DNA of 64,000 nucleotides, from assembly GCA_964455555.1 (NCBI GenBank), contig CAYVXV010000001.1, positions 149,096 to 213,095 on the forward strand, read 5' to 3'. Made by a program: the position numbers and the translations under genes. Of the stretch, positions 2,353 to 21,719 are shown piece after piece. Each line of letters begins with the position of its first letter. Position 1 is the stretch's first letter. The notes beneath the pieces were generated by a model, which did no database searches, was not told the DNA's origin, and saw only the letters and a program-made list of their open reading frames with translations. Source of the DNA: an uncultured Pseudomonadales bacterium (GTDB taxonomy: Bacteria; Patescibacteriota; Microgenomatia; UBA1400; PJMF01).

Positions 2353-5300
2353 CTACTCAAACCTCACACCAACGAAGGAGTGTTTTTCATTTATTTTGTC
2401 AAATACAATAGTGTTGCCAACCACCTCCGCCTGAGGAGCAATTAAGACAGGGGAGTGTTTGCTATTATTGATAATAGTGATGGTTGAAGGCGTTTCATTG
2501 GTACCGGCCTGCTTCTGATTAAAGAAAGCGTACGAGAAAGTGCTGTCCGCTTCAAAGGGAGTAGTGTAGGACACCCTAACTTGCCTGGAGGTTTGAATCG
2601 GCACATCCACTAACACGCCGATGATCATTTTTTCATTCTCAACAGCCAGGGTTAACTGATCCTGGCCAACCACCTGATCATCAATTTTTATCTCAGAAAA
2701 CACTGAGTCTTGAGGTATGTAAAAGCGGATGTAAGTTTTATAGCTGCCCTTAGGCCAGGAGTTGGTTTGCGCGGTGTTTTCCAGCAAAACAGTCCGCTGG
2801 TGGTTGATACGGTCCGGGTTGATAGTGATCATTTGGTCAATAGAGCGCTTAATATAGTAATTGGCCTTATTTACGCCGACATTTGCCTCTACTTGGGCGG
2901 TGGAATCTACTACACAAGTACCATTGCTAAAAAGCGCCGGGCAGTTGGGTTTGATTAGTTCACCCGTCCATCCTAGTGAAGTTAAAGTGAGCTGAGGATC
3001 TGCATTGAATGCCGCAATTGCCATCTGCTGAGTAGAGATGCTTTTGGAAAATGCCCCAAGAAGAGAAGTTATTTTGTCCTCCTGAACGTTTTTTACTTTT
3101 TCGAAAATTTTAGATAAAACAACAGCAGAGTAGTCCTTCGATTCTGAGGTTTCCACCAAAACCACCTCTGAGTGAAATTCCATCCGCTCCTGCAGGTTTT
3201 TGTTCGTCAAAGTCTCGTTGTACTCTTCAAGGTCAACCGGTCCCAGCGCAGCAATAATTTCCTCTAGTGCATAAAGGTTTAAGCCAATTACACCATCAAG
3301 TTTAATGCCCAAGCTCTTATCCATAAACCAAGCCATCCGCTCTGCGGCAACAGGAAAGCTCGGGTCCCAATTGCTGTCGCGGAAATACCAATTTTGTTCT
3401 CCTAAAAACTGCCTGATTTCCTCCGGAGGACTAATTGCGCCGCCAAACCTGCGGTCAATTTCATAACTACTGTAAATCTGATGTGATGAGAGTGAGCCGT
3501 TTTCAAAGCTTAAAATTGCCACTGCTTGAATAAAACCGCCCGTTGGCCTCAACTCTTGATTGTTTTGAAGCACTAGGGCATAGGTGCGCCGGCCGCCTAT
3601 GCCCACAAGGTCATCAAGCACTGTTTCCAGTTGCTGCACTGATACTAGGCCGTCCCTGAGTTTTTTAATTTCCCCAGAATACTGATTAACCAAAGACTCT
3701 TCCTCGCCTAAATCCAAAACAGAATCAACCTGGTCTAAACCAGCCTGCAACAACGAAAGGTTTTCATAGGCTCTTTGGGCTTCAGTATTAAGATTTTGGG
3801 CTAGTACACTAACATCACCATCCTCTCTGCCCAACACTGCTAAAACCAGTTTTTCAGTGCTGCTGCGCGCCGCGTCAACAGAAACAACAGCCTCCCTCAT
3901 CTGCGAGCTAAGCTCCACCAGGAGTGAGGCTTGAGAAAACATTGCGCTGTCGATTAAGCTGGTGTAAGCATTAGTCTGAAACTCCAAGAAGCTATTTCTT
4001 TTCCTCAGGGTTTCCCAGTGCTGGTCGCCCTCAATCTCCGAAACAGACGTTGTTTGAGCATTGACGATGACTCCGACCAGGGCTTTTTTCACGCCATATT
4101 GAGACAAAACAAATACTCCGGCTAAAACCACTATAGAGGCGGCCGCAAAAATACTAACTAACCCCGCCCAGAACATGGTTGTTTTCCGTTTTGATTTCTT
4201 AAAAAACTTCTTTTCCGTTTTGACCAATTTTTTAATATGTTCAACTTTTTGTTCAGTCCTTGTAGCCGTGAAAATTTTTGACAATTCTTCATTTACATCC
4301 AGCGATTTACTGTGGTTTTTTACGGATGCTTCCTGAGTTTTTTTCGGTGGAAAATCGGGCTGCTTGGAGGAGAAGGCAGTGGTTTTTGAGGCCGGCGCTT
4401 CTTGAGTTTTTTGCGGTGTAGGAGAATTAGCAACACTGTTTTCAACCTGGTTGTCTGTGGTTTTTTCAGGCACAACACCACTGCCCACATCTGAAGAAAC
4501 CTTGGCGTCTGGCTCAATTGCTAGTAGTGGGGCTGCAGAAGATAAGGATTCTCGGGTGGGCAATTTCGCAGAAAAAATACTTTTCAACTGTTTTTTTTGA
4601 TTCCCTTGATTTTTATCCGGCTTCTCCAGTTCCTCCTCAAGAGGGGAGGATGCTGCAGAAAATTCGGACACCTTTGGTCGCGGCAGGTTTTGGGCTATAA
4701 CACTAAGTTTTTCCCAACTAATTCCGGTAGAAATTTTTTCAGATACCACAAACGGAACGGGAGGCGACTGCACCTGAGGATAGGGGGATATTTTTAAATT
4801 AAATTGATGATAATGGCCATACTTTTCTTTTATAAAATCTAAAACCCCCGTACTTGGTGATCCGTCAGCCCTGATAAGAACGCTGCCGGAAGATTGGGTT
4901 CTAATCAAATACTCCTTGGCTGCCTTTAGGGCAGAATTAGTATCCTGCAGATACCAGGTTGTCTTCGGATCAACCAAAATCCCTTGCTCAATTAATTTAG
5001 CCGCAAAAAACAGCGGCGAGCTTTCCGGAAGCGGGCTTTCTGTTAAATCGATCAGAAATACAAAGTTGCACCTTGGGAGATGATGACTGCTGTCTAAAAC
5101 GACCTCTTGTTCTATGCGTGCTCTTTTATACCATTGTTGAACTACTTCATGAGTGTTGGTTGAGGCTGAAATCGGGCTTATTAGAGGCATTACCAGAGTA
5201 ACTGGTATAGATACTGATTTTAAATAATTTTTAACTGCCTCATAACCTGTATTTCCAACTCTTCCCGACACCACCCAAATCATTTTATGGGCAGCGGCAG

Positions 5301-5469
5301 CCTGTTGAGGAATAAACCCTCCCAATATATCTTCCGGCTTAACCAACAGCACCCTCAAGCCGCCTGTTTCCAGCAAACCAACTACTTCATCTAGCAGGGG
5401 TGAGGAATCGCCAAGCACAGCAACCACGGGTTGCTCAGCCACAAATTCAGTAGTAAACCGCTGTGACAT
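2353..5469 (-). CDS. large membrane-anchored DUF4012-domain protein (N-terminal Rossmann-like region, P/S/T-rich linker, one TM helix, coiled-coil, C-terminal DUF4012)
   Basis: C-terminal 'LVLQNNQELRPTGGFIQAVAILSFENGSL...NWYFRDSNWDPSFPVAAERMAWFMD' matches the DUF4012 signature; TM helix 'FWAGLVSIFAAASIVVLAGVFVL'. Confidence 0.7.
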   Translation of the reverse strand: MSQRFTTEFVAEQPVVAVLGDSSPLLDEVVGLLETGGLRVLLVKPEDILGGFIPQQAAAAHKMIWVVSGRVGNTGYEAVKNYLKSVSIPVTLVMPLISPISASTNTHEVVQQWYKRARIEQEVVLDSSHHLPRCNFVFLIDLTESPLPESSPLFFAAKLIEQGILVDPKTTWYLQDTNSALKAAKEYLIRTQSSGSVLIRADGSPSTGVLDFIKEKYGHYHQFNLKISPYPQVQSPPVPFVVSEKISTGISWEKLSVIAQNLPRPKVSEFSAASSPLEEELEKPDKNQGNQKKQLKSIFSAKLPTRESLSSAAPLLAIEPDAKVSSDVGSGVVPEKTTDNQVENSVANSPTPQKTQEAPASKTTAFSSKQPDFPPKKTQEASVKNHSKSLDVNEELSKIFTATRTEQKVEHIKKLVKTEKKFFKKSKRKTTMFWAGLVSIFAAASIVVLAGVFVLSQYGVKKALVGVIVNAQTTSVSEIEGDQHWETLRKRNSFLEFQTNAYTSLIDSAMFSQASLLVELSSQMREAVVSVDAARSSTEKLVLAVLGREDGDVSVLAQNLNTEAQRAYENLSLLQAGLDQVDSVLDLGEEESLVNQYSGEIKKLRDGLVSVQQLETVLDDLVGIGGRRTYALVLQNNQELRPTGGFIQAVAILSFENGSLSSHQIYSSYEIDRRFGGAISPPEEIRQFLGEQNWYFRDSNWDPSFPVAAERMAWFMDKSLGIKLDGVIGLNLYALEEIIAALGPVDLEEYNETLTNKNLQERMEFHSEVVLVETSESKDYSAVVLSKIFEKVKNVQEDKITSLLGAFSKSISTQQMAIAAFNADPQLTLTSLGWTGELIKPNCPALFSNGTCVVDSTAQVEANVGVNKANYYIKRSIDQMITINPDRINHQRTVLLENTAQTNSWPKGSYKTYIRFYIPQDSVFSEIKIDDQVVGQDQLTLAVENEKMIIGVLVDVPIQTSRQVRVSYTTPFEADSTFSYAFFNQKQAGTNETPSTITIINNSKHSPVLIAPQAEVVGNTIVFDKINEKHSFVGVRFE

Positions 5470-5565
5470 AGGCAGGCAAAAAAGTGTACTAGTACTTAAG
5501 CCATTGTAGAAAAATTTGAAGGTCTGGGGAAGTGGGGGAACAAGCCTGTCTGATAAAAATAGTTA

Positions 5566-5988
5566 TTAAAGTTCGTAAGCGTCGATGGCTTGGTTAACCA
5601 AGGCGTCTGCCTCAGCATTGTCGCTCCGGCCAATATGGATAACCGTCACATTGGGGAAGGGGAGTACGGTCATTAAGCCCCATGCCTCTACGGCCAACTG
5701 CTTAAGCCTGGGTTCTTTAATTTTCCAGCGCTTATTAACCTGTTCAACCACAAGTTTTGAGTCAAGTTTGCAGGAAACGGAAAAGCCGCTATATTCCCTA
5801 CCATTTTCATTCAGCCATTTCAGGGCTGCAATAAAAGCTTTGTACTCTGCCTCGTTGTTGGTAGCAACTCCAATAAACTCCGAGTGCTCATAAATAACTT
5901 GACCGGCCTCATCATAAATAATCACCCCAATACCCGCGTTGCCAGGATTGCCCCGGGCTCCACCGTCTGTAAATACATTGAGCTGCAT
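5566..5988 (-). CDS. rnhA: ribonuclease HI
   Basis: 'VFTDGGARGNPGNAGIGVII...ATNNEAEYKAFIAALKW' matches the RNase H catalytic D/E motifs. Confidence 0.9.
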   Translation of the reverse strand: MQLNVFTDGGARGNPGNAGIGVIIYDEAGQVIYEHSEFIGVATNNEAEYKAFIAALKWLNENGREYSGFSVSCKLDSKLVVEQVNKRWKIKEPRLKQLAVEAWGLMTVLPFPNVTVIHIGRSDNAEADALVNQAIDAYEL

Positions 5989-5990
5989 AA

Positions 5991-6449
5991 TTAATCTTCT
6001 TTTTTGCGCTGAATTGTCAGTTTTCTATCTCTACCATCACCGTTTGAAACACTTTCAAGGTCTGGAAACTCATCAGAAACAGTGGTGTGGACTACAAACC
6101 GCTCGTGAGAGGGGATGTGATAGGTGAAAGTATAAGGAGAGTTAGTTTCCTGAACCCGTTTAGCGGCGTTACGAGCCATTTCTTTAACTTTTTCTTCTCT
6201 TTGCTGGCGGTATTCGTTAATATTTAGATTGATCCGTTTGTCTGTTTCTCGCTGAAATACAATTCTCAATATTCGTTGGATTGAATCCAGGGTTTCACCG
6301 TGATAACCAATGAACAAGCCTGAGTCGGCTTCAGGAAGATTCATTTGGACGTTTATCGCTTCATCATCTTCGTCGACGATGACTTCAACAGCTGAAGTGG
6401 CGATGCCGCAGTGTTCTGCAAGTTGGGTTAAAAAGGTATCGATAGTCAT
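5991..6449 (-). CDS. khpB: Jag/KhpB RNA-binding protein (Jag_N, KH and R3H domains)
   Basis: Domain pattern 'FLTQLAEHCGI...IGYHGETLDSIQRILRIVFQRE'; classic position immediately after yidC. Confidence 0.75.
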   Translation of the reverse strand: MTIDTFLTQLAEHCGIATSAVEVIVDEDDEAINVQMNLPEADSGLFIGYHGETLDSIQRILRIVFQRETDKRINLNINEYRQQREEKVKEMARNAAKRVQETNSPYTFTYHIPSHERFVVHTTVSDEFPDLESVSNGDGRDRKLTIQRKKED

Positions 6450-6465
6450 AAAAACCTTAAAAGTA

Positions 6466-7260
6466 TTATTTATTCGCTTGTAAAAATCCTAGGGCTCGCT
6501 GCAGGTAAATAGTCAGCCCGCCCCAGCCGGAAACAAAGTATTGTTGAACAACACTAAACACAGTAGTTACTATCCAGTAGAGTGCTAGCCCGGCAGGGAA
6601 GGTATAGGCGAAAAATCCAGTGAACACCGGCATGATATAAATCATTTGCTGCTGCATGGACTGAGCCATTTCAGCAAAGTTTTCTTCTTTCTTATTTGCT
6701 TCCTGAACCGCTTTTTTCTTTGATTTATTCGGTACGATGTCTGGAGTTTCTGCTCCAGGAGCAATCATGACTGAAAGAACCAGCTGCGACAAAGCAGCAA
6801 TAACTGGAAGAACTAGGGTAGATCTACTTTCAACAAGATTGATTCCTAAAAATCTGGTGGTTATCATCTCGCCATTAACCATGATTGTGTCCAAAATTTC
6901 GCCATTATTTCCAAGCTGAGGCTCAAGGAAGCCGATTAAAACCCTATAGAGCAGAATTAGGACAACCAACTGCACTATTTGTGGTAGGCAGCCTGCCAGA
7001 GGATTTACGTTGTATTTTTTATAAAGGTCCATCTGCGCAGCCTGCAAGCCTTTTTTGTCGTCTTTAAACTGCTTTTTAAGTTTATTTAACTCTGGTTGAA
7101 TGGCTTTCATCTGCTTAGCAGCCTTGAGGGAAGGGATAGTAATCGGTAGCAATATCGTCCTGGTAAGAATTGTAAAGGCAATAATAGCTAAACCCAGGTT
7201 TCCTGTTAGGCCATTAAGAAATACTAAAATTTGCAATAAAAATTCTGAAAAAATGCTCAT
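6466..7260 (-). CDS. yidC: membrane protein insertase YidC/Oxa1 (short form)
   Basis: 'MDLYKKYNVNPLAGCLPQIVQLVVLILLYRVL' plus multiple TM helices. Confidence 0.9.
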   Translation of the reverse strand: MSIFSEFLLQILVFLNGLTGNLGLAIIAFTILTRTILLPITIPSLKAAKQMKAIQPELNKLKKQFKDDKKGLQAAQMDLYKKYNVNPLAGCLPQIVQLVVLILLYRVLIGFLEPQLGNNGEILDTIMVNGEMITTRFLGINLVESRSTLVLPVIAALSQLVLSVMIAPGAETPDIVPNKSKKKAVQEANKKEENFAEMAQSMQQQMIYIMPVFTGFFAYTFPAGLALYWIVTTVFSVVQQYFVSGWGGLTIYLQRALGFLQANK

Positions 7261-7346
7261 AACTCCTTCTGTATTAATTCGGTCGGAACGACTAATTGTA
7301 CCATTTTTTATTATTATTAATTATCTGGTTTAATCCCTGTTGTTCA

Positions 7347-7553
7347 CTACCAGCAGGTTAATACTCGTATAATCCCCTTAATGCCGCCCACCAACAACCC
7401 TTCTTTCTCGATTTTTTTAAATGCATATGTACCGCATGTTGGATTGTGCTTGCAGTGACTTATATAACCGAAGGCGCTGTATAGAATCTGGTACCTAAAT
7501 GCCCTAAACACTTGATAAGACTTAAACAAAAATCTAAATATTAATTTATTCAT
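7347..7553 (-). CDS. yidD: membrane protein insertion efficiency factor YidD
   Basis: 68 aa with the conserved 'CKHNPTCGTYAFKKIEKEG' motif (CxxxPTCS-type); overlaps rnpA by 8 nt. Confidence 0.8.
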   Translation of the reverse strand: MNKLIFRFLFKSYQVFRAFRYQILYSAFGYISHCKHNPTCGTYAFKKIEKEGLLVGGIKGIIRVLTCW

Positions 7554-7899
7554 GAGCCTTCAACCGGCTACCAATTTTTAAAAAGGCTTTCTCCATGGCC
7601 TCTGAGATTTCTTGGTGAGAGGAGGAGGAAACCGGATGTTTTGCCACCACAACAATATCCGCAGGCACTCCAGCCACACTTTGAATACTATCAGAAATAG
7701 ACCTACTTATCAATCTTTTTATTCTTATTCTCTCGGCGGCTTTCGCGGCAATTTTCTTAGAAACAACAACTGAGAAGGCTGGGCTACCGTCATCTCTCTT
7801 TACAATGAATAAATTAAATAAGGGATACCTTAAGATCTCCGCCTGCTTAAAAAAATCAGGCTTACTCCTAAGCTGAAGTCTAAATTGTTTTGGCAACAT
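7546..7899 (-). CDS. rnpA: ribonuclease P protein component
   Basis: 'LPKQFRLQLRSKPDFFKQAEILRYPLFNLFIVK...FSVVVSKKIAAKAAERIRIKRLIS' matches the RnpA signature. Confidence 0.85.
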   Translation of the reverse strand: MLPKQFRLQLRSKPDFFKQAEILRYPLFNLFIVKRDDGSPAFSVVVSKKIAAKAAERIRIKRLISRSISDSIQSVAGVPADIVVVAKHPVSSSSHQEISEAMEKAFLKIGSRLKAHE

Positions 7900-7914
7900 T
7901 AAAATTAGCGTACC

Positions 7915-8056
7915 ACTATTTGGCGTTGTCAGTTAAGCGCTTACGCCCTTTTGCCCTGCGGGATTTTAAAACACCTAAATGCTTTTTGGCTCTGTGCAAA
8001 AAACCGTGCTTGCGGGCGCGCTTCTTTTGTTTGGGGTTCCAGGTTCTCTTGGTCAT
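7915..8056 (-). CDS. rpmH: 50S ribosomal protein L34 (46 aa; below the ORF-track length cut-off)
   Basis: Hand translation of the minus strand gives MTKRTWNPKQKKRARKHGFLHRAKKHLGVLKSRRAKGRKRLTDNAK*; canonical position upstream of rnpA. Confidence 0.85.
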
Positions 8057-8092
8057 AAGTTTGACATTATATCACAAGGCTAAAACAGGTAA

Positions 8093-9202
8093 TTATTGAT
8101 TAACTTTAAAAGGCATAATTATGTATTGGTAGGATTGCATCTCTTCTGTTTCAAACGTTGCCGGCTTCAAACTGTCAGACATGCTGAAAGAAATTGTCTG
8201 GCCGGTTGCAGCCTGCAGAAAATCAAGAAGATAGCGGGCATTAAATGCAATATTGCTTTCTTCACCCTCAACAGCAGCCTGCTGAAGATCTCCTGAGAAA
8301 GTTCCCAGGGAAGGGGATGAAGATTTTAATACTGCCTTGCCGCCTTCAAAATGAAATCTGACAATATTCGAGGCGTCCCGAGAAAATATAATCGCTCTTT
8401 TGATGTTGTTTGCCAATTCTTCAGTGTCAAAAGTCACTTTGGTAGTAAAACTGTTGGGTACGATTTTCTCATAAGGAGGATAACTACCTTCAATCAACCG
8501 CACAAAAACTTGGGCGTCGTTCACTGCAAAAAAGACTTGTTTAAGCTCCTCAGAGACCGTAAAACGGACTTGGCCAGTGTCGGATTGACTGAGTATCCGG
8601 AATACCTCGCTAAGAGCCCTTGCCGGCACTAACATTTCTTTTTCAACGGATGCAGGCTCTTCGCTCAGCTGCATTAGCGCCAATCTAAATCCATCTGTAC
8701 TCACAACCTTAAGGCCGCCTTCTGAGAAAGAGAAGAGAACTGATGTTAATACCGGCCTAGCCTGATCGGTTGAGGCTCCAAATACTATATAGCGCTCAAT
8801 TTTCTCCAGGTATTCTTTGGAAAGTTCATACTGTTCACCTTGAACCTCTGGAAAAGGAGGGTACTCATTACTATCTAGGCATTGAAGGGAAGCCTTAGAA
8901 TTTTTTGATTTAATGGTTAGAGTTCCATTTTTATAAACTAAGTCTAGTGCTCCGGGAGGAAGTGAAGCGATGATTTCTCTAAATTGCTTTCCTGGAATTA
9001 CAATTTCTCCTTCATCAATTATTTCAGCTTGAACACTTGATCTCACTCCAAAGTACAGGTCTGTGGCAGCTATAGTGCACTCATTGCCTTTGGCTGAGAG
9101 CAGTACTGAGGATAGGATTGGCAAGGTAGGTTTTGAAGGAATCGCTTTTTGGATGTAATTCAGTGACTGATGAAGGTTTTCTTGTAGGACTTTGAGTTTC
9201 AT
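8093..9202 (-). CDS. dnaN: DNA polymerase III beta sliding clamp
   Basis: 369 aa, 'MKLKVLQENLHQSLNYIQKAIPSKPTLPILSSVLL' N-terminus, three-domain clamp length, directly downstream of dnaA. Confidence 0.9.
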   Translation of the reverse strand: MKLKVLQENLHQSLNYIQKAIPSKPTLPILSSVLLSAKGNECTIAATDLYFGVRSSVQAEIIDEGEIVIPGKQFREIIASLPPGALDLVYKNGTLTIKSKNSKASLQCLDSNEYPPFPEVQGEQYELSKEYLEKIERYIVFGASTDQARPVLTSVLFSFSEGGLKVVSTDGFRLALMQLSEEPASVEKEMLVPARALSEVFRILSQSDTGQVRFTVSEELKQVFFAVNDAQVFVRLIEGSYPPYEKIVPNSFTTKVTFDTEELANNIKRAIIFSRDASNIVRFHFEGGKAVLKSSSPSLGTFSGDLQQAAVEGEESNIAFNARYLLDFLQAATGQTISFSMSDSLKPATFETEEMQSYQYIIMPFKVNQ

Positions 9203-9483
9203 AAACTGTTTCTATTATTAAGAAAAATAGTATTAATTAATAGTTGCATTAGTAGTAGAGCAAAAAATAATCGTGGATTTCCTTAGTATTTCCGCCTGGT
9301 GTTTTAGTGTGGATCGAATGTTGATATTCCCCGCTATCTTTTGTTAATAACATTTGGGGATTGGTGTGGGGCAGGTGTTTGCAACCTTTTTCGTTTCCCC
9401 ATCCGGCAAGAATATTCAACATCTATTAACACCACAATCCTCATTTTTTCAACAGCTTTATCCACAACTGTGGATAAAAACCA
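9203..9483. promoter_or_regulatory. candidate oriC / DnaA-box region in the dnaA-dnaN intergenic spacer
   Basis: Perfect TTATCCACA at 9458-9466 and its perfect inverse TGTGGATAA at 9469-9477; imperfect boxes TGTGGATCG at 9308-9316 and CGTGGATTT at ~9272; AT-rich stretch at 9205-9265. Confidence 0.6.
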
Positions 9484-11052
9484 CTAACTTCCTGCAGCCA
9501 GAGTCATCCTTAGCGCCGAAATATCCCGTTGAACCAATTCATTACTCTTAACCTCACCATTAATTTTATTCACTGCATGAAGTACTGTGGTGTGATCTCG
9601 GTTTGAGAACCACTTGCCAATTTCTGTAAGAGGTAAGTCGAGGTCGGTTTTTAATAAATACATGGCAATATGGCGGGCTTGAACCAGTGATTTAACCCTT
9701 CTTTTGCCCTTAATTGCTGTTTGTTTGAGCCGGTAATGATTGGCCACGGTCTTGATAACCTCGGCCGGAGCGGCTTTAATTTGAGGCCTCTTATCTTGAA
9801 TTTCAACTAAAAGAATGTCATCAATTAGTTCGTTATTAACTTCGCGGTGCTTTAATTCAACTTCTGAACGGATGCTGGTGATAATCCCCTCAATTTTTCT
9901 GGCGCTTTCTACCTGTGAAGCAATGGTTTTAGCCAACTCAATTGGAATATTTAAGTTGGCAGCTTTTGATTTAACCAGCAAAATTGCGGTTCGCAGTTCA
10001 AAAGATGGTTGTTGAATATCTATCATGAGTCCGGCTTCAAACCTCGAGCGCAGCCTGTCTTCCAGTAAGTTTATTTCGTGAGGGGGCCGGTCTGAAGTTA
10101 CGACTATTTGGCTTTGCTGCTTTGTTAAGGAATTGAAAGTGTGAAAAAATTCCTCTTGCACAGCATTTTTTCCAGCAATAAACTGAACATCGTCAATCAG
10201 GAGTACGTCGGCATTGCGGTATTTTGCCTTAAATTGGCTAGCTTTCTTAGTTTGAATGGCATGGACTATCTCATTGGTGAATTCTTCGCCAGTGCAGTAA
10301 ATAATTTTTGCATCAGGGTTGTTTCGTAGGATGTTGTTGCCGATAGCGTGCATAAGGTGGGTTTTGCCGACTCCAACTCCCCCATACAGGAAAAGCGGGT
10401 TGTAAGACTGTCCTGGCCGGTTGGAAACTGCGGTGGCAGCTGCGTGAGCCATTTCATTGGTTGTTGATACAGCAAAGGTTGTGAAGGTGTAGTCAGTGCG
10501 AAGACCCACTTTTCTAGCTATAGCCTCAACCCTATCAACAGCAGCAGACCGCATGTTGTTTTCTGAGAACAAATCTTCTACCCGGGGAGAAGCTGTACCG
10601 CCGTGCCCGGAGTAGGACTGCGGCTGAAGGGTTTGTTGGGGCGAAGACTGAGGCGTGGGTTGAGAAAGCTGTCCTTCATCACTCTTGTTTTGTTCGAAAT
10701 TTGGCGTAAAAGTCTGGCCTATGGTTTTAAAACCTTCGCTGCGCTGTTCTTGCCCGCTTTGAGCTAGGGGGTCACCGACTTTGTAAACAATCTCTACATC
10801 CCGCCCTGTCACCTTATCCACTGCTGACTTTATAAACATATGAAGGTTTTTTTTGAGGTTTGTTGAATGAAAGGCTGTAGGGCTGGTTATGGTTGCCGTG
10901 GCCTTGTCAGCATCCTCAAAAACCAACTCTGTAATTGGATTGGAAATAATCCAGGTGCTGTATACAGCGGGAGACAGCTGTAATTGGAGGTGAGAGCAGG
11001 CTTGCTGCCAGATTTTTTTAGTTTCGGCTGTCGGTAGTGCTGTGGTTTGCAT
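9484..11052 (-). CDS. dnaA: chromosomal replication initiator DnaA
   Basis: Walker A 'GGVGVGKTHLMHAIGN', 'LLIDDVQFIAGK', C-terminal DNA-binding 'HTTVLHAVNKI'. Confidence 0.95.
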   Translation of the reverse strand: MQTTALPTAETKKIWQQACSHLQLQLSPAVYSTWIISNPITELVFEDADKATATITSPTAFHSTNLKKNLHMFIKSAVDKVTGRDVEIVYKVGDPLAQSGQEQRSEGFKTIGQTFTPNFEQNKSDEGQLSQPTPQSSPQQTLQPQSYSGHGGTASPRVEDLFSENNMRSAAVDRVEAIARKVGLRTDYTFTTFAVSTTNEMAHAAATAVSNRPGQSYNPLFLYGGVGVGKTHLMHAIGNNILRNNPDAKIIYCTGEEFTNEIVHAIQTKKASQFKAKYRNADVLLIDDVQFIAGKNAVQEEFFHTFNSLTKQQSQIVVTSDRPPHEINLLEDRLRSRFEAGLMIDIQQPSFELRTAILLVKSKAANLNIPIELAKTIASQVESARKIEGIITSIRSEVELKHREVNNELIDDILLVEIQDKRPQIKAAPAEVIKTVANHYRLKQTAIKGKRRVKSLVQARHIAMYLLKTDLDLPLTEIGKWFSNRDHTTVLHAVNKINGEVKSNELVQRDISALRMTLAAGS

Positions 11053-11210
11053 ACTTAATTAATTGCCGAAAAGCAAATTACACTGATGTGTATGACTTTT
11101 CTGCAGTTTACTGGGGGCAGGTATAAATTACTTAATTGGCGTATTTGTTTATACACAAAGTTTTCCACATTTTACAAGTGGGAAAATATTCCTGTGTGCA
11201 GGGGCGTCCC
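11053..11210. promoter_or_regulatory. dnaA upstream region with near-consensus DnaA boxes (promoter / possible second origin module)
   Basis: TTATACACA at 11149-11157 and TTTTCCACA at 11161-11169 (one mismatch each to TTATCCACA); TGTGTATGA at 11088-11096; 12-nt palindrome cctgtgtgcagg. Confidence 0.45.
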
Positions 11211-13337
11211 TCAAGATTCAGGCGGTGTGTAATCCTGGATTGATTGTTGGCCGTGATATCTTACTCCCTCTCTTCCAAGCGGTTCTTGAGCCGCAGGCGC
11301 AGGGCTACCATTGGATTGGGGATTAGGATTTTCTGACTGGGCCGATGCTTGTTCAGGAGGGTTTTGCCCTGGTTCGCCGTCGCCTTCTGTCTGGTAGTAG
11401 GCTGGAGCCGGCCTGTTTTGTTCGGTCTCCAGTTTTTTTCTGGCTTCAATCTGCCGCCGCTTAAGTATTTCCTCTGGGTTGCTGGTGATAACCTGATGTT
11501 CTTCGTCGCTAGCCACCACTCTGAGGGCTACATGGTTTTGTCCGGCAAAGAAGATCCCTTCCCCAATATCGGAAGAAATTAGAAGTTGGCGCTCTCCCTG
11601 TGAGAGATAAAAGGTCTCTGACAAAACGGGGATTGAAGCGGTTGACTGCTTCATTAAAAATTGTATTGAAGCATTGGTGACAATAGCTTTGCCATAATCG
11701 TTGTGCAAAAAGTCCTCAACATCCTGAGTGATTGTGGTAATGCCTAAATAATATTTTCTTGAACGCTTAACCATTGAATGCAGGAACGAAGCTGAATCCT
11801 GATGCTTCATGAAATACCAGGCCTCATCAACCACGAGGATGCGTTTCTTGAGGTCTTTTTTAATTCTGGTCCAGATAAACTCTAGGATTATATACATAGC
11901 AATCGGTCGGAGTTCTTCCTCCATCTCCTTAACCGAAAAAACCGTAAGTTGGTTGCGGATATCCAGGTTGGAGGGTTGGTCAAAAATACCCCGGAATGAG
12001 CCGGTGATAAACTTCTCCAGCCTTGAAGCAATGTCGTCAGAGTCCTTGTTTTCCATGCCAATTAAAACCTTGTAAACATCTTCCATCAAGGGAGGTTCAT
12101 TGGTTTGGGTGGCTGGATCCGGAGTAATTCCCTTGGCTTTGTAGGCAGCTACCAAGGCGCGGTCAAGGATGGCGTCCTGCTGAGGCGTCATTTCCCCGAG
12201 CATAACTTTTAGCAAGCCATGAAGGGAAATGATTTTTTGGCCCAGCTCATTTTCACCTTCTTCATAGAGATTGGACAGGTCGAAAGGATTGATTTTGGTT
12301 TCGGAACCGAAAGTAAAGTTGATATATTCGCCTCCGGCCGCCTTGCAAAGCTCCTCATACTCTTGCTCTGGGTCAAGGACAATTACTTCTGTGTCAAACA
12401 TGAGCTGCCTGAGGATTTCCAGTTTTACAGTGTAGGATTTTCCTGCACCAGATTTGGCAAAGATAACCATATTGGCGTTTTCCATTTTGAAGCGGTCAAA
12501 AATAACCAGCGAGTCATTGTGTTCGTTGATGCCGTACACAATGCCGGTTTCCATGGTCAGCTCCGAAGAAGTAAAGGGAAAAGTTGTAGCCAGAGACGTG
12601 GTGTCCATGTTTCTGGTCACCATCAGTTTGTCGGTGCCCATAGGTAGGGTGGTTTTAAAACCTTCGTCCATCTGGAGGGTAGCTTTTTTGGAGACAATTA
12701 ATAGTGAACCCAAGGAAGACTGTATGGCCTTAGTCACCTTATCCAGCTGTTCCTTGCTGTCTGCTTGTATAGTTATATAAAGCCCGAATTGATAGAAGCG
12801 CTCTGATCCTTTAGCCAGTTCTTCCCGGATAAAGCGGGCGTCTTCAAGTTTAACTTCTGTATTGATGTTGCTAATCTTTCCCGACCTAAGGTCTGATTGG
12901 ATTTCCGCCTCCATCTCTGTGATTTTTCTTTTAAGATTGTCGAGAATTTCGGCTGAATCAACCGGAAAAATGTACATGGATACATTTATCTGATGGGGAA
13001 AGTTAATCAGCGGTGAAAGCCAGTTGGCCGGGACAGCCCTTGGGTATCCGGCCACAAAAAGCGTTCTTGTGTAGGTGGAATTGATTTTTTGAAAGGTGAA
13101 ATCAACCTCAATTGCTTCTGGGGCAATAATATCTTGAATAGTAACCAGGCCTCGGGAAAACGCTTTTAGCTTTTCTTGGTTGCGCTGATCTAAGTTCTGC
13201 TGAACATTATTTTCAGAAGAACCGCTTTCTTTTGGTTTATTGAGGAATGGTAGTCCTGCAAATAGATTGGGCATCTTGTTTTTTTTGACTAACCGCTGTC
13301 TGCCGCTATCATCATTACTCGGAACATTAACAATCAA
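11211..13337 (-). CDS. VirB4/TrbE/CagE-family type IV secretion ATPase (core; lacks the extreme N-terminal VirB4 motif)
   Basis: Walker A 'FAKSGAGKSYTVK'; VirB4 hallmark Walker B 'ILVVDEAWYFM'; N-terminal CagE_TrbE-like 'YTRTLFVAGYPRAVPANWLSPLI'; P/Q/N-rich C-terminal tail. Annotated start is TTG; an ATG (MPNLF) lies at 13274. Confidence 0.85.
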   Translation of the reverse strand: MIVNVPSNDDSGRQRLVKKNKMPNLFAGLPFLNKPKESGSSENNVQQNLDQRNQEKLKAFSRGLVTIQDIIAPEAIEVDFTFQKINSTYTRTLFVAGYPRAVPANWLSPLINFPHQINVSMYIFPVDSAEILDNLKRKITEMEAEIQSDLRSGKISNINTEVKLEDARFIREELAKGSERFYQFGLYITIQADSKEQLDKVTKAIQSSLGSLLIVSKKATLQMDEGFKTTLPMGTDKLMVTRNMDTTSLATTFPFTSSELTMETGIVYGINEHNDSLVIFDRFKMENANMVIFAKSGAGKSYTVKLEILRQLMFDTEVIVLDPEQEYEELCKAAGGEYINFTFGSETKINPFDLSNLYEEGENELGQKIISLHGLLKVMLGEMTPQQDAILDRALVAAYKAKGITPDPATQTNEPPLMEDVYKVLIGMENKDSDDIASRLEKFITGSFRGIFDQPSNLDIRNQLTVFSVKEMEEELRPIAMYIILEFIWTRIKKDLKKRILVVDEAWYFMKHQDSASFLHSMVKRSRKYYLGITTITQDVEDFLHNDYGKAIVTNASIQFLMKQSTASIPVLSETFYLSQGERQLLISSDIGEGIFFAGQNHVALRVVASDEEHQVITSNPEEILKRRQIEARKKLETEQNRPAPAYYQTEGDGEPGQNPPEQASAQSENPNPQSNGSPAPAAQEPLGREGVRYHGQQSIQDYTPPES

Positions 13338-13472
13338 GCGGCCAACGAGCCTAGCGTTGTCGTTGCAACCATTGTACTGAAAATACTCCGGTCATCAAAG
13401 ACCCAGCTATTCTAGCAGATGAGCACAGGTCTGCGATTTATTAGTTCTAGTTACAGGATTTAGCCGGTCCTC

Positions 13473-14966
13473 TTATTGTTTGTCTGGCTCGGTTGGAGCA
13501 GCGTTGGGCGAAACATTTTGGTCAGGCGTCGTAGATGTTGCGGCCGCAGGGTTAGAGCCAAGTTCTCCCAGTGTCTTATTAATCTCATCTTGAGCTGCTG
13601 TAAGTTCGTCGTCTGCAGGAGGTGGACTGCCGGTTCCTTCTCCGGCTGGTTCTGGGCTTGCGGACGGAGCAGGCGGCACTTCCTGTTTTTGAACCTGTTG
13701 TTCTTGATTTGGCGTCAAGTTAACCTCGTTCGGCGCACCGGTTTGTGCAGCGGGCTGCCCGGAAGTTGGTTCTGTGGTTGCCTCAACCATTGGTGTGGGA
13801 GGGGCAGTGGGCATTGGAAGAGGAGCTTCTTCAGGAGCTGTGTCTGAAGAAGTTTCTCCCTCTGGCTTTTGGATGGTTTGAGACTCTACCGGTACCGGAG
13901 GGACAGCATCACCCTCACTAGGCATAGCTGGAGTTGGGGGAGGTGTAATTGGGTTTGGAGTGGAATCGCCCTGACCCCCATTTTCAACAACAACTTGTTC
14001 GAGTGTCATTGGAGTTGGCGCAGCACTGGCCTGCGGCTCGGTTGGAGTAACCTGGGCACCAGTGTCAGGTGCGGTGGTGTCAGCAATGGGGTTGGGTAGT
14101 TCGGTCGGAGCAGCTTGTTGTTCAGCTGGAGCCGGCTGCTGTGCTTGAGCCGGAGCAGGTTCGACTTGTGGCTGAGTAGGCGGCTGTGTTGGTTGCTCGA
14201 CTGGAGCCAATTGTTCTTCGGTTCCGGGCTGAGTGGCCTGCGTCTCATCCGGGTTGTTGGGTGTATTTTGCGGCATGGCAAATCCTTCAAAACTCGCTTT
14301 TACTAGTGGTGTTGTATAGCTGTTGCTGTCTGCAATTCCTTGCCCTTCCGCAGCTTCGGGATTGTAGCTTAAATAGAATAATTGAATAATTTCTTGAGTA
14401 GTGAGTTGATTTGAATAGAGGCCTATTCTGGCAAATTGAGAAATAATGTGATCCCGTTTGGGTTCCAGAATATTTTGAGCTTTTTCCAGCAAAACGCTTC
14501 TTTCTATTTGTGTTACATCAAATGTTTGCTGTCCCGGAAGCACGCTTTGAGCGGTTAATAAGCCTAGTTCGAGAGGGCCGGCGGGGATAACAACATAAAA
14601 CTTTTTATCAAGCACGTTGCGCTCGTGAATTAAGTTGCTTACAAATTCGCGGTAGCGGCCAATCCGGTGGCGTTTTTCTTGAGTAGAGGCCTGAGCCTCC
14701 TGCTCCTGAAGCCTTCTTAGATAACTGGTTACATCTTTTGTTTGAGAGCGGACCAACACCTGAATTGGATAATTGAGGGAATTCAACAAGCCGGCATAGG
14801 CGTAGATAATGCTGTCCTGTTCTTCCTCGGCTAGAAGGCCGAAGTTCATCGCGTCGACGGTTAGGATGAGTGATGTAGTGCCATCCTTCATAATCACTAA
14901 ATCATTAGTGATATCGTGAATATCAAGGTATTGTTGAGTGGTGGAAGAAATTGTTTGTTCTGCCAT
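13473..14966 (-). CDS. VirB4 N-terminal-domain-like protein with ~270-aa P/T/Q/A-rich disordered tail (putative detached N-terminus of VirB4)
   Basis: 'DLVIMKDGTTSLILTVDAMNFGLLAEEEQDSIIYAYAGLLNSLNYPIQVLVRSQ' mirrors the extreme N-terminal motif of VirB4/TraC ATPases (compare A. tumefaciens VirB4 'IVLLEDGSIMSIARIDGVAFELEEIE...IYAHLVRH', recalled from memory); no ATPase motifs; lies directly upstream of the ATPase ORF. Confidence 0.5.
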   Translation of the reverse strand: MAEQTISSTTQQYLDIHDITNDLVIMKDGTTSLILTVDAMNFGLLAEEEQDSIIYAYAGLLNSLNYPIQVLVRSQTKDVTSYLRRLQEQEAQASTQEKRHRIGRYREFVSNLIHERNVLDKKFYVVIPAGPLELGLLTAQSVLPGQQTFDVTQIERSVLLEKAQNILEPKRDHIISQFARIGLYSNQLTTQEIIQLFYLSYNPEAAEGQGIADSNSYTTPLVKASFEGFAMPQNTPNNPDETQATQPGTEEQLAPVEQPTQPPTQPQVEPAPAQAQQPAPAEQQAAPTELPNPIADTTAPDTGAQVTPTEPQASAAPTPMTLEQVVVENGGQGDSTPNPITPPPTPAMPSEGDAVPPVPVESQTIQKPEGETSSDTAPEEAPLPMPTAPPTPMVEATTEPTSGQPAAQTGAPNEVNLTPNQEQQVQKQEVPPAPSASPEPAGEGTGSPPPADDELTAAQDEINKTLGELGSNPAAATSTTPDQNVSPNAAPTEPDKQ

Positions 14967-15028
14967 GCTGTAAAGAGTATTTTAATAGTAAAGCGTTTGG
15001 ACTACTGGTTCAAGTTCTAACCAGGGAT

Positions 15029-16240
15029 TTAGGCACTCCTTATTTCGAGTGGGGCAACAGGCTCTCCTTTCAAAACTATGGTTTGTGGAGTAAAGCTGAA
15101 ACCATCCTTTTCGACATTTACCAAATATTCACCATTTTTTAGAGGGGTGGTAATGAAAAATTGGCCTAATGCATTTGTTTTAACAGCTCGAACAATTTGG
15201 CCTCCGAGTTGTATTTCTACAATAGCGTTGGTAATTAATTCGTTGTTTTGGGTTAATACCATTCCGACGAGCTTGTTGGCTTCTTCCGGAGGATCCGGGA
15301 AGGGCAGGTCTAAATTAAACGCTGCCTCTGTTGCATTTTGAGTTTCCTGTACTGGGACTGATGTGCTAGTCTCAACATAGGTGTGGCCGGAAGCATTTGT
15401 TTGAGTTTGTTCTGATTCAGCTGCGGCTGATTCCTCTATTATATTTGCTACCTGCTCAACTTCGGGAGGAGTGTTTTCGGGCACATCGACTAAGGTGGCA
15501 GCCTCTTCTGCGGTAAGATCAGCAGTTTTCTTAACCTCAAACTCTTCTTGTTGATTTATCGAAGTAGCCAGGTTTGGAGTCGAAATTTTTTTAATTGGCG
15601 CGTCATCAGCGATGCTGGTGGGAGCGTAAATAGTTACTTCTTCTCTGGTTTTAATAACTGGAGAAGTTTGGCTCCGCATGCTTCTAACTCTGACCTGAAG
15701 ATTTGGTTTGGCAGCAACTTTTTTCTGCGCGGCTGTGGGTGTGATTGGCTCCGGAGCAGCATCAAAGAAAGAAGAGATTTGCTGTATCCTACTAGCTTCC
15801 CAGTCAGTCAGGTCGCTCTGATATTCGGAAGGTGTATTTACCGAAGTGATGTATTCTTTAATCCTAGCTTTTTTTACCGGACTTAAGTCTAGTTCCGGTT
15901 CATATTGTGTCTGGTTAGCTGTGGGTTCGTATAAGAAAGGTTCCGGAATATTGGATGTTCTTTTCCAAAAAAACTTAGTTGGTTTGTAGAGTGTTCTGAA
16001 AAAAGTGATAATCCAGTGATCAAGTGGCCTTTCCTCAATCGGCAAGAAAGCCGCTCCGGCTCCCAGGCCTACGGAGAGCAGTATGAACGCCCACTTAATT
16101 GGTGTAGGCAGGTTGGTGCTGTAAAAAGCGACACCAACAACCACGCCAATGAATATTTCAGCAAACTGCTTGAGGGTCATGCTGCCAATAATATGAAAAC
16201 GGTAGTTGGTGATGTCTTGTGGGATTGGGTGTTCTCGCAT
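15029..16240 (-). CDS. VirB3/PrgI-like two-TM membrane protein fused to a C-terminal CarboxypepD_reg-like beta-sandwich domain
   Basis: N-terminal 'RFHIIGSMTLKQFAEIFIGVVVGVAFY...WAFILLSVGLGAGAAFLPIE' (two TM helices, GxxTxxQ-like motif) in the position typical for VirB3 just before VirB4; C-terminal 'AIVEIQLGGQIVRAVKTNALGQFFITTPLKNGEYLVNVEKDGF' is prealbumin-like; SD 'aggaaag' upstream. Confidence 0.45.
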   Translation of the reverse strand: MREHPIPQDITNYRFHIIGSMTLKQFAEIFIGVVVGVAFYSTNLPTPIKWAFILLSVGLGAGAAFLPIEERPLDHWIITFFRTLYKPTKFFWKRTSNIPEPFLYEPTANQTQYEPELDLSPVKKARIKEYITSVNTPSEYQSDLTDWEASRIQQISSFFDAAPEPITPTAAQKKVAAKPNLQVRVRSMRSQTSPVIKTREEVTIYAPTSIADDAPIKKISTPNLATSINQQEEFEVKKTADLTAEEAATLVDVPENTPPEVEQVANIIEESAAAESEQTQTNASGHTYVETSTSVPVQETQNATEAAFNLDLPFPDPPEEANKLVGMVLTQNNELITNAIVEIQLGGQIVRAVKTNALGQFFITTPLKNGEYLVNVEKDGFSFTPQTIVLKGEPVAPLEIRSA

Positions 16241-16328
16241 AACAAGGCTTTCCTGCCGCTCATCTAATCATATCAGGTCGAGGTATAACCTGAGTAGGGC
16301 GAGTTGGTTCAGTTAAAAATAGGCTAAG

Positions 16329-17369
16329 TTAAAAGCCTGAAGTAGTTTCAATTGCCGGAGTAATGAATGTTAAGAAAACATTATCGAATTCTGAGCCGGC
16401 GCTTTCTCCTTCCGCCTCAATCCGGAAATATGGGTAGTAAGCCTGGGTTCTAGGAGAGTAGCGGTATTCAAGCTCTAGATTATTGACAGTGATGGTTTTA
16501 AGGGAGGTAATCTCAAAGTTGGCTGCAAGGTTTCCCGCTTCAATTATTTCAGCACTGCCGCCGGCGATTTTTTCTCTGATCTTTGACAGCGGCAGAATGT
16601 TTTTGTCTGCTATTTTTGTAGCCATGGGCGGCGGCGGGTAAAACTCTGCTTTTTTAATTTCGTAGTTAAAGCCAACCTGGATTGTTGCAAGTGATTTTCT
16701 GGCAGCTGAGTAGTAGGCGGGATAATTATCAATTAAAAAAGTAAACGGGATTACAATCGTTTCAGCAGTGCCGGCCGACGCAGTCCTGGATTCCTGAGCC
16801 AGGAAGGTGATCTCTCTTCTTAGAGGCGAGAGTTCGGGATAACCGGGAATTTGTTTAATGAAGGCGCTGGCGGCATTAATTGCAGGCTCAATTACAATTT
16901 CCTGATTATCATCTGATATTTCGGGTATCGAAACCACATACATTAGTTTGTTCTCGTGCTCAAGGAAGCTGAGTGAGCGCTTGGTCTCATAATCGGTCCA
17001 CGTACTCACCTGATATGGAGATGTGTCCTGAGGCAGGCTTAAGCTTTCTGCAACTTGTTGGGCAAAATTTCTAGTAGATGAGTAGGAAGGAGTGCCGGTG
17101 TAAACACCGAGGGTTTTGGGAAAGTCAACTTCGTCTTGAGAAATATTCATAACTACCCGTACGTTTTCGGGCGGCTTAGTAATGCCCGAGCTGATTCCTT
17201 CAATTGTCACAGGCGTGCTTTCAGGAGGTTCTGGTGTAAGGATAAGTAATAGGGCTGAACCCACCAGCACAAACCCAAGAAGGATAATGAAGTAGCGCAA
17301 TGGGTTGGCTTTTATCTTTTCCGGAATACTCCGGATTGTTTGCAGTATTTGTTCTTTATTAATTGTCAT
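16329..17369 (-). CDS. N-terminally membrane-anchored extracytoplasmic protein (possible VirB8/TcpC-like T4SS component)
   Basis: Single N-terminal TM 'YFIILLGFVLVGSALLLIL' and ~300-aa ectodomain; only positional and topological support. Confidence 0.3.
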   Translation of the reverse strand: MTINKEQILQTIRSIPEKIKANPLRYFIILLGFVLVGSALLLILTPEPPESTPVTIEGISSGITKPPENVRVVMNISQDEVDFPKTLGVYTGTPSYSSTRNFAQQVAESLSLPQDTSPYQVSTWTDYETKRSLSFLEHENKLMYVVSIPEISDDNQEIVIEPAINAASAFIKQIPGYPELSPLRREITFLAQESRTASAGTAETIVIPFTFLIDNYPAYYSAARKSLATIQVGFNYEIKKAEFYPPPPMATKIADKNILPLSKIREKIAGGSAEIIEAGNLAANFEITSLKTITVNNLELEYRYSPRTQAYYPYFRIEAEGESAGSEFDNVFLTFITPAIETTSGF

Positions 17370-17403
17370 GAGGCAATGTCTTTATCATACACGGTAGAAG
17401 TTT

Positions 17404-21540: not shown

Positions 21541-21719
21541 GCTTTGATTATAGCGCAGGGTGTGTAGAGAATGGGAGGGTGAAGCGGGTATGTAAACCGC
21601 TGCTTTTCCTTTTTTCAACGTGTATGAAATAATAGAGCTATATTTACCTGCGGAAGGTTTTAAGTGTTAGTAGTTGATGCCAGATGTAATCATCAGGCGT
21701 TTTTGATATAATTCAGACA

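Follow-up and report, generated by a model that had tools for sequence, protein, structure and literature searches.

The dnaA-dnaN spacer

We analyzed a 64-kb stretch of a metagenomic contig that is deposited as an uncultured Pseudomonadales bacterium (CAYVXV010000001.1, positions 149,096 to 213,095). This stretch is called the window in the following and all coordinates are counted from its first nucleotide. The region of interest is the intergenic spacer between the genes dnaA and dnaN, a candidate chromosomal origin of replication (oriC). dnaA (9484..11052, minus strand) encodes the replication initiator, a protein of 522 aa with the Pfam domains Bac_DnaA (1.4e-68) and Bac_DnaA_C (7.4e-25). 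dnaN (8093..9202, minus strand) encodes the beta clamp with three Pfam DNA_pol3_beta domains and is located directly downstream of the candidate origin. The spacer occupies exactly positions 9203–9483, and its 281 bp have a GC content of 35% compared to 45.5% for the window. The minus strand carries every gene in 2353–21618 and is referred to as the dnaA-sense strand.

For comparison we used eleven relatives, giving twelve genomes together with the window. Seven closely related loci (L162 and L165–L170, DnaA 70–80% identical) were obtained by protein search and the loci were fetched; the remaining four (L001–L004, 55–62%) are the nearest named genomes and represent metagenome-assembled genomes (MAGs) of Candidatus Paceibacterota/Pacebacteria. 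A scan of metagenome contigs with DnaA revealed no relatives closer than those from the genome scan. The eight closest dnaA-dnaN spacers were combined in one alignment (A1).

DnaA boxes in the spacer

An earlier note, made from the sequence of the window, had described a perfect inverted pair of DnaA boxes between dnaA and dnaN. We confirm this pair: the perfect box TTATCCACA is located on the plus strand at 9458–9466 and is followed, after a 2-nt gap (AC, 9467–9468), by its exact reverse complement TGTGGATAA at 9469–9477. No other perfect DnaA box is present in the window, and both lie within 20 bp inside the spacer. As a count, two perfect boxes per 64 kb are unremarkable, since 9 out of 100 shuffled windows contained two or more (mean 0.40). 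It is the placement of both boxes within 20 bp in the spacer, not their number, that is non-random. We also ranked DnaA-box clusters by mismatch-weighted scoring in frames of 281 bp, a check of box density that had been proposed, for the full contig, along with the pair. The top cluster of the window is the spacer region with a score of 14 (frame 9296–9576) and of 12 for the spacer itself, followed by the region just upstream of dnaA with a score of 6. A score as high as that of the spacer is reached by 0.24% of the window positions, all of which overlap the spacer locus or its edge. Within the 281 bp we found 6 boxes with at most two mismatches, and the core ATCCAC occurs 4 times compared to 0.07 occurrences expected from the window average.

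We designated boxes on the dnaA-sense strand as forward (F) and those in the opposite orientation as reverse (R). Box F1 (9469..9477, minus strand) is the perfect TTATCCACA read on the dnaA-sense strand, and a box is present at the aligned site in 10 of the 12 genomes. It lies 6 nt past the dnaA stop codon (TAG, 9484–9486), and is the box nearest to the stop, a position that had been given to 9458–9466 before. That box, R1 (9458..9466, plus strand), is likewise perfect but has the opposite orientation, 2 nt from F1, and its TGTGGA is invariant in the eight genomes of A1. Together F1 and R1 form a 20-bp palindrome. Box R2 (9446..9454, plus strand; TTTTCAACA, 2 mismatches) follows 3 nt from R1 and is conserved in the relatives, where it reads TGTTGAAAA, TGTGAATAA or GGTGGATAA. 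The resulting triad, one forward box and two reverse boxes with gaps of 2 and 3 nt, is found in 10 of the 12 genomes. Weaker reverse box-like sites can be read from the sequence within 9413..9443 on the plus strand: TGAGGATTG (9435–9443) and TGTTGAATA (9413–9421). They are spaced at about 11–12 bp, or multiples of this distance, from R1 and R2, and a conserved TGTGAAnAGnTGTGAA block occupies this position in the relatives. These sites may be bound by DnaA.

The forward orientation is continued towards dnaN by F2 (TTATTAACA, 9342–9350), F3 (ATATCAACA, 9319–9327) and F4 (CGATCCACA, 9308–9316), all on the minus strand with 2 mismatches each, and finally by F5 at 9272–9280. The block ATCAACA-N-ATCCAC within this array (9308..9350) is conserved in A1. 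The earlier note had listed two near-consensus boxes here. Both exist and their ATCCAC cores are conserved at aligned positions in the relatives, but their quality was overstated: these inner boxes are weak, with 2 mismatches at 9308–9316 (TGTGGATCG) and 3 mismatches at 9272–9280 (CGTGGATTT). Between F4 and F5 a motif CCAG(R)GG..AAA (9289..9299, minus strand; A1 columns 201–212) shows weak conservation in most relatives. Neither a known binding factor nor a structure could be assigned to this motif, and a hairpin around it was dropped since by eye it was inconsistent across the relatives.

In the reverse array consecutive sites start 12, 11 and 22 bp apart. In the forward array, including the step to the DnaA-trios described below, they start 23, 11, 36 and 22 bp apart. 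These values approximate multiples of one helical turn, which would place the sites in phase on the helix. Judged by the predicted sites, the spacer is laid out as two outward-facing box arrays, and the sites closest to consensus are those most distant from the unwinding element. In A1 conservation is confined to discrete blocks with variable sequence in between. Starting from dnaA the order of the blocks is F1/R1, R2, reverse sites of the TGTGAA type, a variable middle part, F2–F4, CCAG..AAA, F5, spacer, trios and AT-rich DNA. Two small open reading frames of 57 aa (9249–9422, minus strand) and 65 aa (9354–9551, plus strand) were considered spurious, since conservation is limited to the box-like and trio-like blocks, and the intervening sequence varies and contains indels.

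The position of the palindrome 6 nt past the dnaA stop codon would also suit a mainly transcriptional element at the 3’ end of dnaA, either a terminator or attenuator hairpin or a DnaA roadblock controlling read-through into dnaN. As RNA the palindrome is predicted to form a hairpin of -10.6 to -13.1 kcal/mol (z-scores -3.3 to -5), and its arms often co-vary in the relatives (TTTTCCACA/TGTGGAAAA in L162, TTATGCACA/TGTGCATAA in L004). However, the stem is AT-rich with 3–4 G-C pairs and falls short of an intrinsic terminator, a U-tract is absent after the hairpin on both strands, and a terminator scan of 9203–9483 gave no hit. In L162, L166 and L168 the hairpins are no better than those of shuffled sequences (z = -1.2 to -1.8). 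It is the DnaA-box sequence itself that is conserved (TCCACA/TGTGGA invariant in A1) and not the mere ability to pair, and the palindrome is followed by a third tandem box at box spacing. L004, in which both arms are changed, has boxes of the TGCACA type throughout its spacer; a shift in box preference would be an explanation of the paired arm changes at least as good as selection for pairing. We consider a mainly transcriptional role of the palindrome unlikely.

Boxes of the TGCACA or TTCACA type are found throughout the origin of L004 (5450–5723; TTATGCACA, TGTGCATAA, TTGTGCACA, TGTGCAGAA), which suggests a lineage-specific shift of DnaA-box preference. A scan for promoter and terminator consensus sequences between 7800 and 11400 found none in the spacer and none at a further box pair upstream of dnaA, which is described below. 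The Rfam scan of 7000–12000 at a permissive E-value yielded nothing in the spacer. Its two matches, mir-2567 and an AsdA match inside dnaA, are at chance level (E about 0.8–0.9), and we discarded the idea that the spacer encodes an RNA.

Box, trios and AT-rich DNA next to dnaN

A basal unwinding system (BUS) is defined by at least three DnaA-trios within 16 bp of a DnaA box, with 13 bp as the commonest spacer (PMC8287927). The filament that DnaA forms on single-stranded DNA binds the trio motif 3’-GAT-5’ (PMC10721633). In the window trios are located on the plus strand at 9238..9258. The 3’-GAT-5’ repeats of TAGTAGTAG at 9250–9258 represent the sole perfect copy of this sequence in 64 kb and are followed by degenerate trios up to about 9238. 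On the dnaA-sense strand they read CTA CTA CTA ATG, that is four consecutive NAN trios of which the first three are GAT, compared to the minimum of three in the definition. These trios, which the earlier note had missed, are the most diagnostic element of the spacer. In all twelve genomes the dnaA-sense run CTACTACTA..ACAACTA ends the spacer and is followed by very AT-rich DNA and the start of dnaN. The run matches BUS loci of Firmicutes.

The trio-proximal box F5 (9272..9280, minus strand; AAATCCACG) has 3 mismatches and an invariant TCCAC core. Its orientation and its distance of 13 nt to the first trio are those of a BUS. The intervening AT-rich spacer (9259..9271, minus strand) measures 13 nt in 9 of the 12 genomes, 14 nt in two and 4 nt in one. 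At the site aligned to F5 the relatives carry TTTTCCACG, TTATCCACG, TAATCCACA or TTCTCCACA, mostly with 1–2 mismatches: ten of the eleven have at most two, L002 has three, and in L003 the box is located at the 4-nt spacer.

Beyond the trios the predicted AT-rich DNA-unwinding element (DUE; 9203..9237) abuts the start codon of dnaN. The GC content of the 30 nt past the trios is 13% in the window and 10–23% in the relatives. It amounts to 17% for 9203–9249 and to 21% for 9205–9265, the stretch that had been pointed out as AT-rich before and clearly is so in comparison to the 45.5% of the window. By 50-mers the region 9177–9280 ties for the highest AT content in the window, and 9203–9249 ranks within the top two regions. 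From the first trio to the ATG of dnaN the distance is 45–57 nt in 11 of the 12 genomes. In L165 it is 149 nt compared to about 50 elsewhere; here an insertion of about 95 bp with a GC-rich inverted repeat (CTTGATTCATCCACGGGCTAATGCCCGCGGATATATCAAG) is found between the AT-rich region and dnaN (L165:11800–11913). The layout of the module is conserved in all eleven relatives sharing the gene order (DnaA 55–80% identical), with its elements at aligned positions in L162, L165–L170 and L001–L004.

Orientation was compared as well. The box strand 5’-TTATCCACA-3’ is followed by 5’-CTA-3’ repeats on the same strand, in agreement with the BUS table of PMC8287927, in which the 3’-AATAGGTGT-5’ box strand runs into GAT repeats. 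Fetched dnaA-dnaN spacers of Firmicutes show an equal orientation, for example TTATCCACATATCCACAAGACCTACTACTATTACTACTA (TTATCCACATATCCACAAGAC-CTACTACTATTACTACTA) followed by AT-rich DNA in Peribacillus (L014). DnaA of the window aligns to B. subtilis DnaA from the cryo-EM entry of the BUS (8BTG) with E = 7e-97. Asn187 is kept (N260), Ile190 is replaced by Val263 and the arginine-finger motif LRSRF (R264) is identical. These positions correspond to the Asn that contacts the trios, the Val/Ile in the motif for ssDNA binding and the arginine finger; their roles are described in PMC10721633. The residues for binding of single-stranded DNA and trios and the arginine finger, which a BUS requires of its DnaA, are thus found in the alignment. 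Runs of a box and CTA trios also occur in spacers of other bacteria of the candidate phyla radiation (CPR), which were examined less thoroughly: Amesbacteria (L006, L021), Magasanikbacteria (L030) and Saccharibacteria (L071, L080).

GC skew around the spacer

The cumulative GC skew, a check suggested in the earlier note for the full contig, was determined for the window. It has its minimum at 8848 near the spacer, from where it increases nearly continuously up to 61.5 kb. We determined the skew of the plus strand at third codon positions (GC3 skew) separately for genes on both strands. Plus-strand genes have a value of -0.215 left of 9.3 kb and of +0.055 right of it, and minus-strand genes have +0.004 and +0.221, respectively. 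This pattern fits a constant transcription term of about -0.09 combined with a replication term of about +0.13 whose sign switches. A weighted change-point scan of the strand-corrected GC3 skew placed the best switch at 9343, and minus-strand genes left and right of the site differ in skew (Mann-Whitney p = 0.012). Since genes of one strand flank the spacer on both sides, the switch cannot be explained by a change in gene orientation. With negative values on the left and positive ones on the right, it has the polarity of an origin and not of a terminus. In four of the seven close relatives (flanks of about 10 kb) the minimum of the cumulative skew is located within about 500 bp of the spacer.

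Across the window C exceeds G at third codon positions of the coding strand, corresponding to the transcription term of about -0.09. The very strong plus-strand GC3 skew of minus-strand genes at 27–35 kb (0.26–0.63) results from this term being superimposed on the replication term of about +0.13.

Assignment of the spacer

Based on these data the spacer 9203–9483 is most probably the chromosomal oriC of a Paceibacteria-type (Patescibacteria/CPR) bacterium, more specifically the DNA-unwinding part of it. Features expected of an oriC coincide here: a cluster of DnaA boxes, an AT-rich flank, the adjacency of dnaA, dnaN, rpmH, rnpA and yidC and, within the window, the sign switch of the skew. By every sequence criterion we tested the spacer falls into the class of DnaA-dependent origins with a predicted BUS of the B. 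subtilis type, the quality of F5 being marginal. The proposal of a dnaA-dnaN intergenic origin in the earlier note is therefore supported by box density, by the BUS module in 11 of 11 relatives and by skew, while no RNA, promoter or terminator emerged as an alternative. The earlier note had taken the palindrome as the core of the origin, while F1/R1, located about 200 bp from the unwinding site, is more likely a distal high-affinity anchor.

Several observations weigh against this assignment. With 3 mismatches to TTATCCACA, F5 taken by itself exceeds the 2 mismatches that the published program for BUS searches allows. At the level of one mismatch the window contains 15 boxes compared to 14.4 expected and is therefore not enriched as a whole. 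Change-points at 7996 and 5518 fit the skew almost as well as 9343, and the skew is ambiguous in three of the seven close loci (L165, L168, L169) as well as in the four loci with short flanks (L001–L004). The skew evidence is local, covering 64 kb of a 226-kb contig with about 9 kb left of the site, so that a deeper minimum may be located elsewhere. Furthermore, with an origin at this position the transcription of dnaA and of about 12 kb of type IV secretion genes would run head-on into the rightward fork.

DnaA-box clusters outside of origins occur in other bacteria. The spacer could accordingly be a DnaA-regulated promoter or box cluster, serving as reservoir or regulatory site for dnaA and dnaN, with the real origin elsewhere. 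The chance-level frequency of 1-mismatch boxes mentioned above would be in line with such a cluster, as would the fact that the 64 kb examined belong to a contig of at least 226 kb. However, a regulatory cluster needs neither trios at a fixed distance of 13 nt nor AT-rich DNA, which are conserved over 12 genomes. The sign switch of the strand-corrected skew falls at the dnaA-dnaN gap, and a sigma-70-like promoter consensus was not found in the spacer. We regard this explanation as very improbable.

A second pair of DnaA boxes upstream of dnaA

Two tandem boxes with one mismatch each, TTATACACA and TTTTCCACA, precede the start of dnaA by about 100 nt and are separated by 3 nt (11149..11169, plus strand). 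On the dnaA-sense strand the pair reads TGTGGAAAA-CTT-TGTGTATAA and is nearly identical (TGTGGAAAACTTTGTGTATAA) in 10 of the 11 relatives. A conserved ACTTG precedes it. A location of the pair within a -35/-10 promoter was considered and dropped, since the candidate TATAAN lacks an invariant final T. The pair is likely to represent either an autoregulatory site of dnaA or a second cluster of DnaA boxes belonging to the origin.

The latter would extend our assignment to a bipartite origin, in which the spacer and the cluster at 11149–11169 interact and loop out dnaA, as in B. subtilis (incA/B and incC) or Helicobacter pylori (oriC1/oriC2). Among the box clusters of the window the upstream region ranks second, the pair is almost invariant as described, and bipartite origins flanking dnaA are known (PMC6669920). 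On the other hand the upstream region comprises two good boxes only, with neither trios nor strongly AT-rich DNA beside them. At about 100 nt before the dnaA start simple autoregulation fits equally well, and L002 has no such box pair in the short stretch examined. A bipartite origin is possible, and we put it forward tentatively.

Gene neighborhood and lineage

Downstream of dnaN the ribosomal protein L34 is encoded by rpmH (about 7916–8056, minus strand; 46 aa, translation MTKRTWNPKQKKRARKHGFLHRAKKHLGVLKSRRAKGRKRLTDNAK), located between dnaN and rnpA. According to Pfam the genes located 3’ of dnaN further include rnpA, yidD, yidC, a KH/R3H protein (Jag/KhpB), RNase H and a DUF4012 protein. 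The rpmH-rnpA-yidD-yidC-jag block is therefore downstream of dnaN and co-directional with it, not divergent from dnaA as in most bacteria. Directly upstream of dnaA lies a gene for a VirB4/TraG-like ATPase (Pfam). It belongs to a type IV secretion-like cluster on the minus strand (11211–21618) with the VirB4/TraG ATPase, a TraC-like and a PrgI-like protein and, at about 1400 aa, a giant protein of the Peptidase_M23 type. This cluster is kept upstream of dnaA in all relatives. The gene order common to all of them is PrgI, TraC-like, VirB4, dnaA, dnaN, (rpmH), rnpA, yidC, jag, RNase H, DUF4012 and L25. A neighborhood of secretion genes and dnaA has already been noted for Paceibacteria (PMC12102498).

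Several of the close DnaA relatives carry the public labels ‘uncultured Pseudomonadales’, ‘Gammaproteobacteria’ or ‘Vitreimonas’. Gene order and DnaA similarity point to Paceibacteria, and the MAGs labeled as Pseudomonadales, Gammaproteobacteria or Vitreimonas are probably mislabeled.

Proposed mechanism of origin opening

Direct observation covers the elements and how they are ordered, spaced and oriented, as well as their conservation in the relatives, the enrichment of boxes and the local switch of the skew. From these we derive a model in which occupancy by DnaA, order of filling, site of melting and firing of the origin are to be read as predictions. DnaA would first fill the perfect boxes F1 and R1 beside the dnaA stop codon, which would act as a high-affinity anchor. 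The weaker reverse-oriented sites from R2 onward, spaced at about 11–12 bp, would be filled next. About 100 bp further on the forward array F2–F5 is directed at dnaN. ATP-DnaA at 9272–9280 would then oligomerize over the 13-nt spacer onto the trios. The strand captured in this step would be the plus strand of the window with its 3’-GAT-5’ repeats (TAGTAGTAG, 9250–9258). Finally the AT-rich DNA at 9203–9249 would open for helicase loading, as in the incC BUS of Bacillus subtilis.

A few features of this origin are unusual, if modestly so. The palindromic triad directly adjoins the stop codon of dnaA, there is just one proximal box and it is degenerate, the CCAG motif has no assigned role, and dnaA and the secretion cluster are oriented against the predicted rightward fork. 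We considered whether the triad, whose first two boxes remain a palindrome through paired changes in several lineages, might be a functional module of its own, which together with the CCAG motif would constitute an origin regulatory layer specific for Paceibacteria. It may form a roadblock or cruciform that depends on DnaA occupancy and insulates the origin from dnaA read-through, thereby coupling dnaN expression and origin firing to the level of DnaA. As another option it may nucleate two divergent DnaA filaments. We regard such a separate module as rather doubtful.

In summary, the origin is well-formed, conserved and conventional, and leaves the understanding of bacterial origin function unchanged. 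It provides a base-level origin map for an uncultured lineage of Paceibacteria (CPR), for which genome papers usually just assume a location near dnaA, and indicates that a Bacillus-type module of box, 13-nt spacer, GAT trios and AT-rich DNA is conserved in this clade. Such a map can be used for anchoring replication-rate estimates of the iRep type, for setting genome start points and for checking CPR assemblies, and also for planning biochemical work on DnaA and oriC of organisms that do not grow on their own.

Comparison with known origins

Among the known systems closest to the spacer is the BUS at incC of B. subtilis (Richardson 2016). Like the spacer of the window, incC is located between dnaA and dnaN, and the order of elements is the same: distal boxes, proximal box or boxes, spacer, 3’-GAT-5’ trios, AT-rich DNA and dnaN. 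Strand and orientation relations and the spacer of about 13 nt also agree, and DnaA of the window keeps the trio-binding Asn, a hydrophobic residue in the initiator-specific motif and the arginine finger. In B. subtilis the elements between dnaA and dnaN are DnaA-box#6/7, the trios and an AT-rich 27-mer (PMC6669920; PMC8287927; PMC10721633), and incC is organized in distal and proximal box subregions alike (PMC6669920). There are differences as well. Where B. subtilis has a tandem pair of proximal boxes followed by a GC-rich cluster, the window has the single degenerate box AAATCCACG and an AT-rich spacer. Unlike in B. subtilis, a clade-specific CAA/ATG trio interrupts the trio run (CTACTACTA-AYA-CAA-CTA), a perfect inverted pair and a third box abutting the dnaA stop codon make up the distal anchor, and the upstream cluster corresponding to incA/B is down to two boxes. 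Finally, rpmH, rnpA and yidC are located downstream of dnaN and not upstream of dnaA.

Origins often contain two box arrays that face outward (PMC5043019). In E. coli oriC and the epsilonproteobacterial oriC2 two DnaA sub-complexes form on opposed arrays (PMC5043019). Oppositely oriented arrays are found in the window as well (R1, R2 and weak sites; F2–F5), with strong boxes at the far end, putative weak sites phased at 11–12 bp and a DUE-proximal box pointing towards the DUE. The context in E. coli is different, its oriC being located between gidA and mioC, and in the window origin we identified no sites for IHF or Fis. The head-to-head palindrome F1/R1 is not a described feature of E. coli oriC or the epsilonproteobacterial oriC2, and our literature search for head-to-head pairs of DnaA boxes gave nothing specific.

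For Patescibacteria no description of oriC anatomy was found in the literature searched, although origin databases may already list predictions. The part of the supplementary BUS table of PMC8287927 that was covered contains no CPR entry. The Paceibacteria described in PMC12102498 share both the lineage and the neighborhood with the window: a cluster of VirB4, TraC-like and PrgI genes is located beside dnaA, dnaN, rnpA and rpmH. In that study the origin is simply equated with dnaA and inferred from proximity to this gene only, whereas here its elements are mapped to the base and their conservation in the lineage is documented.

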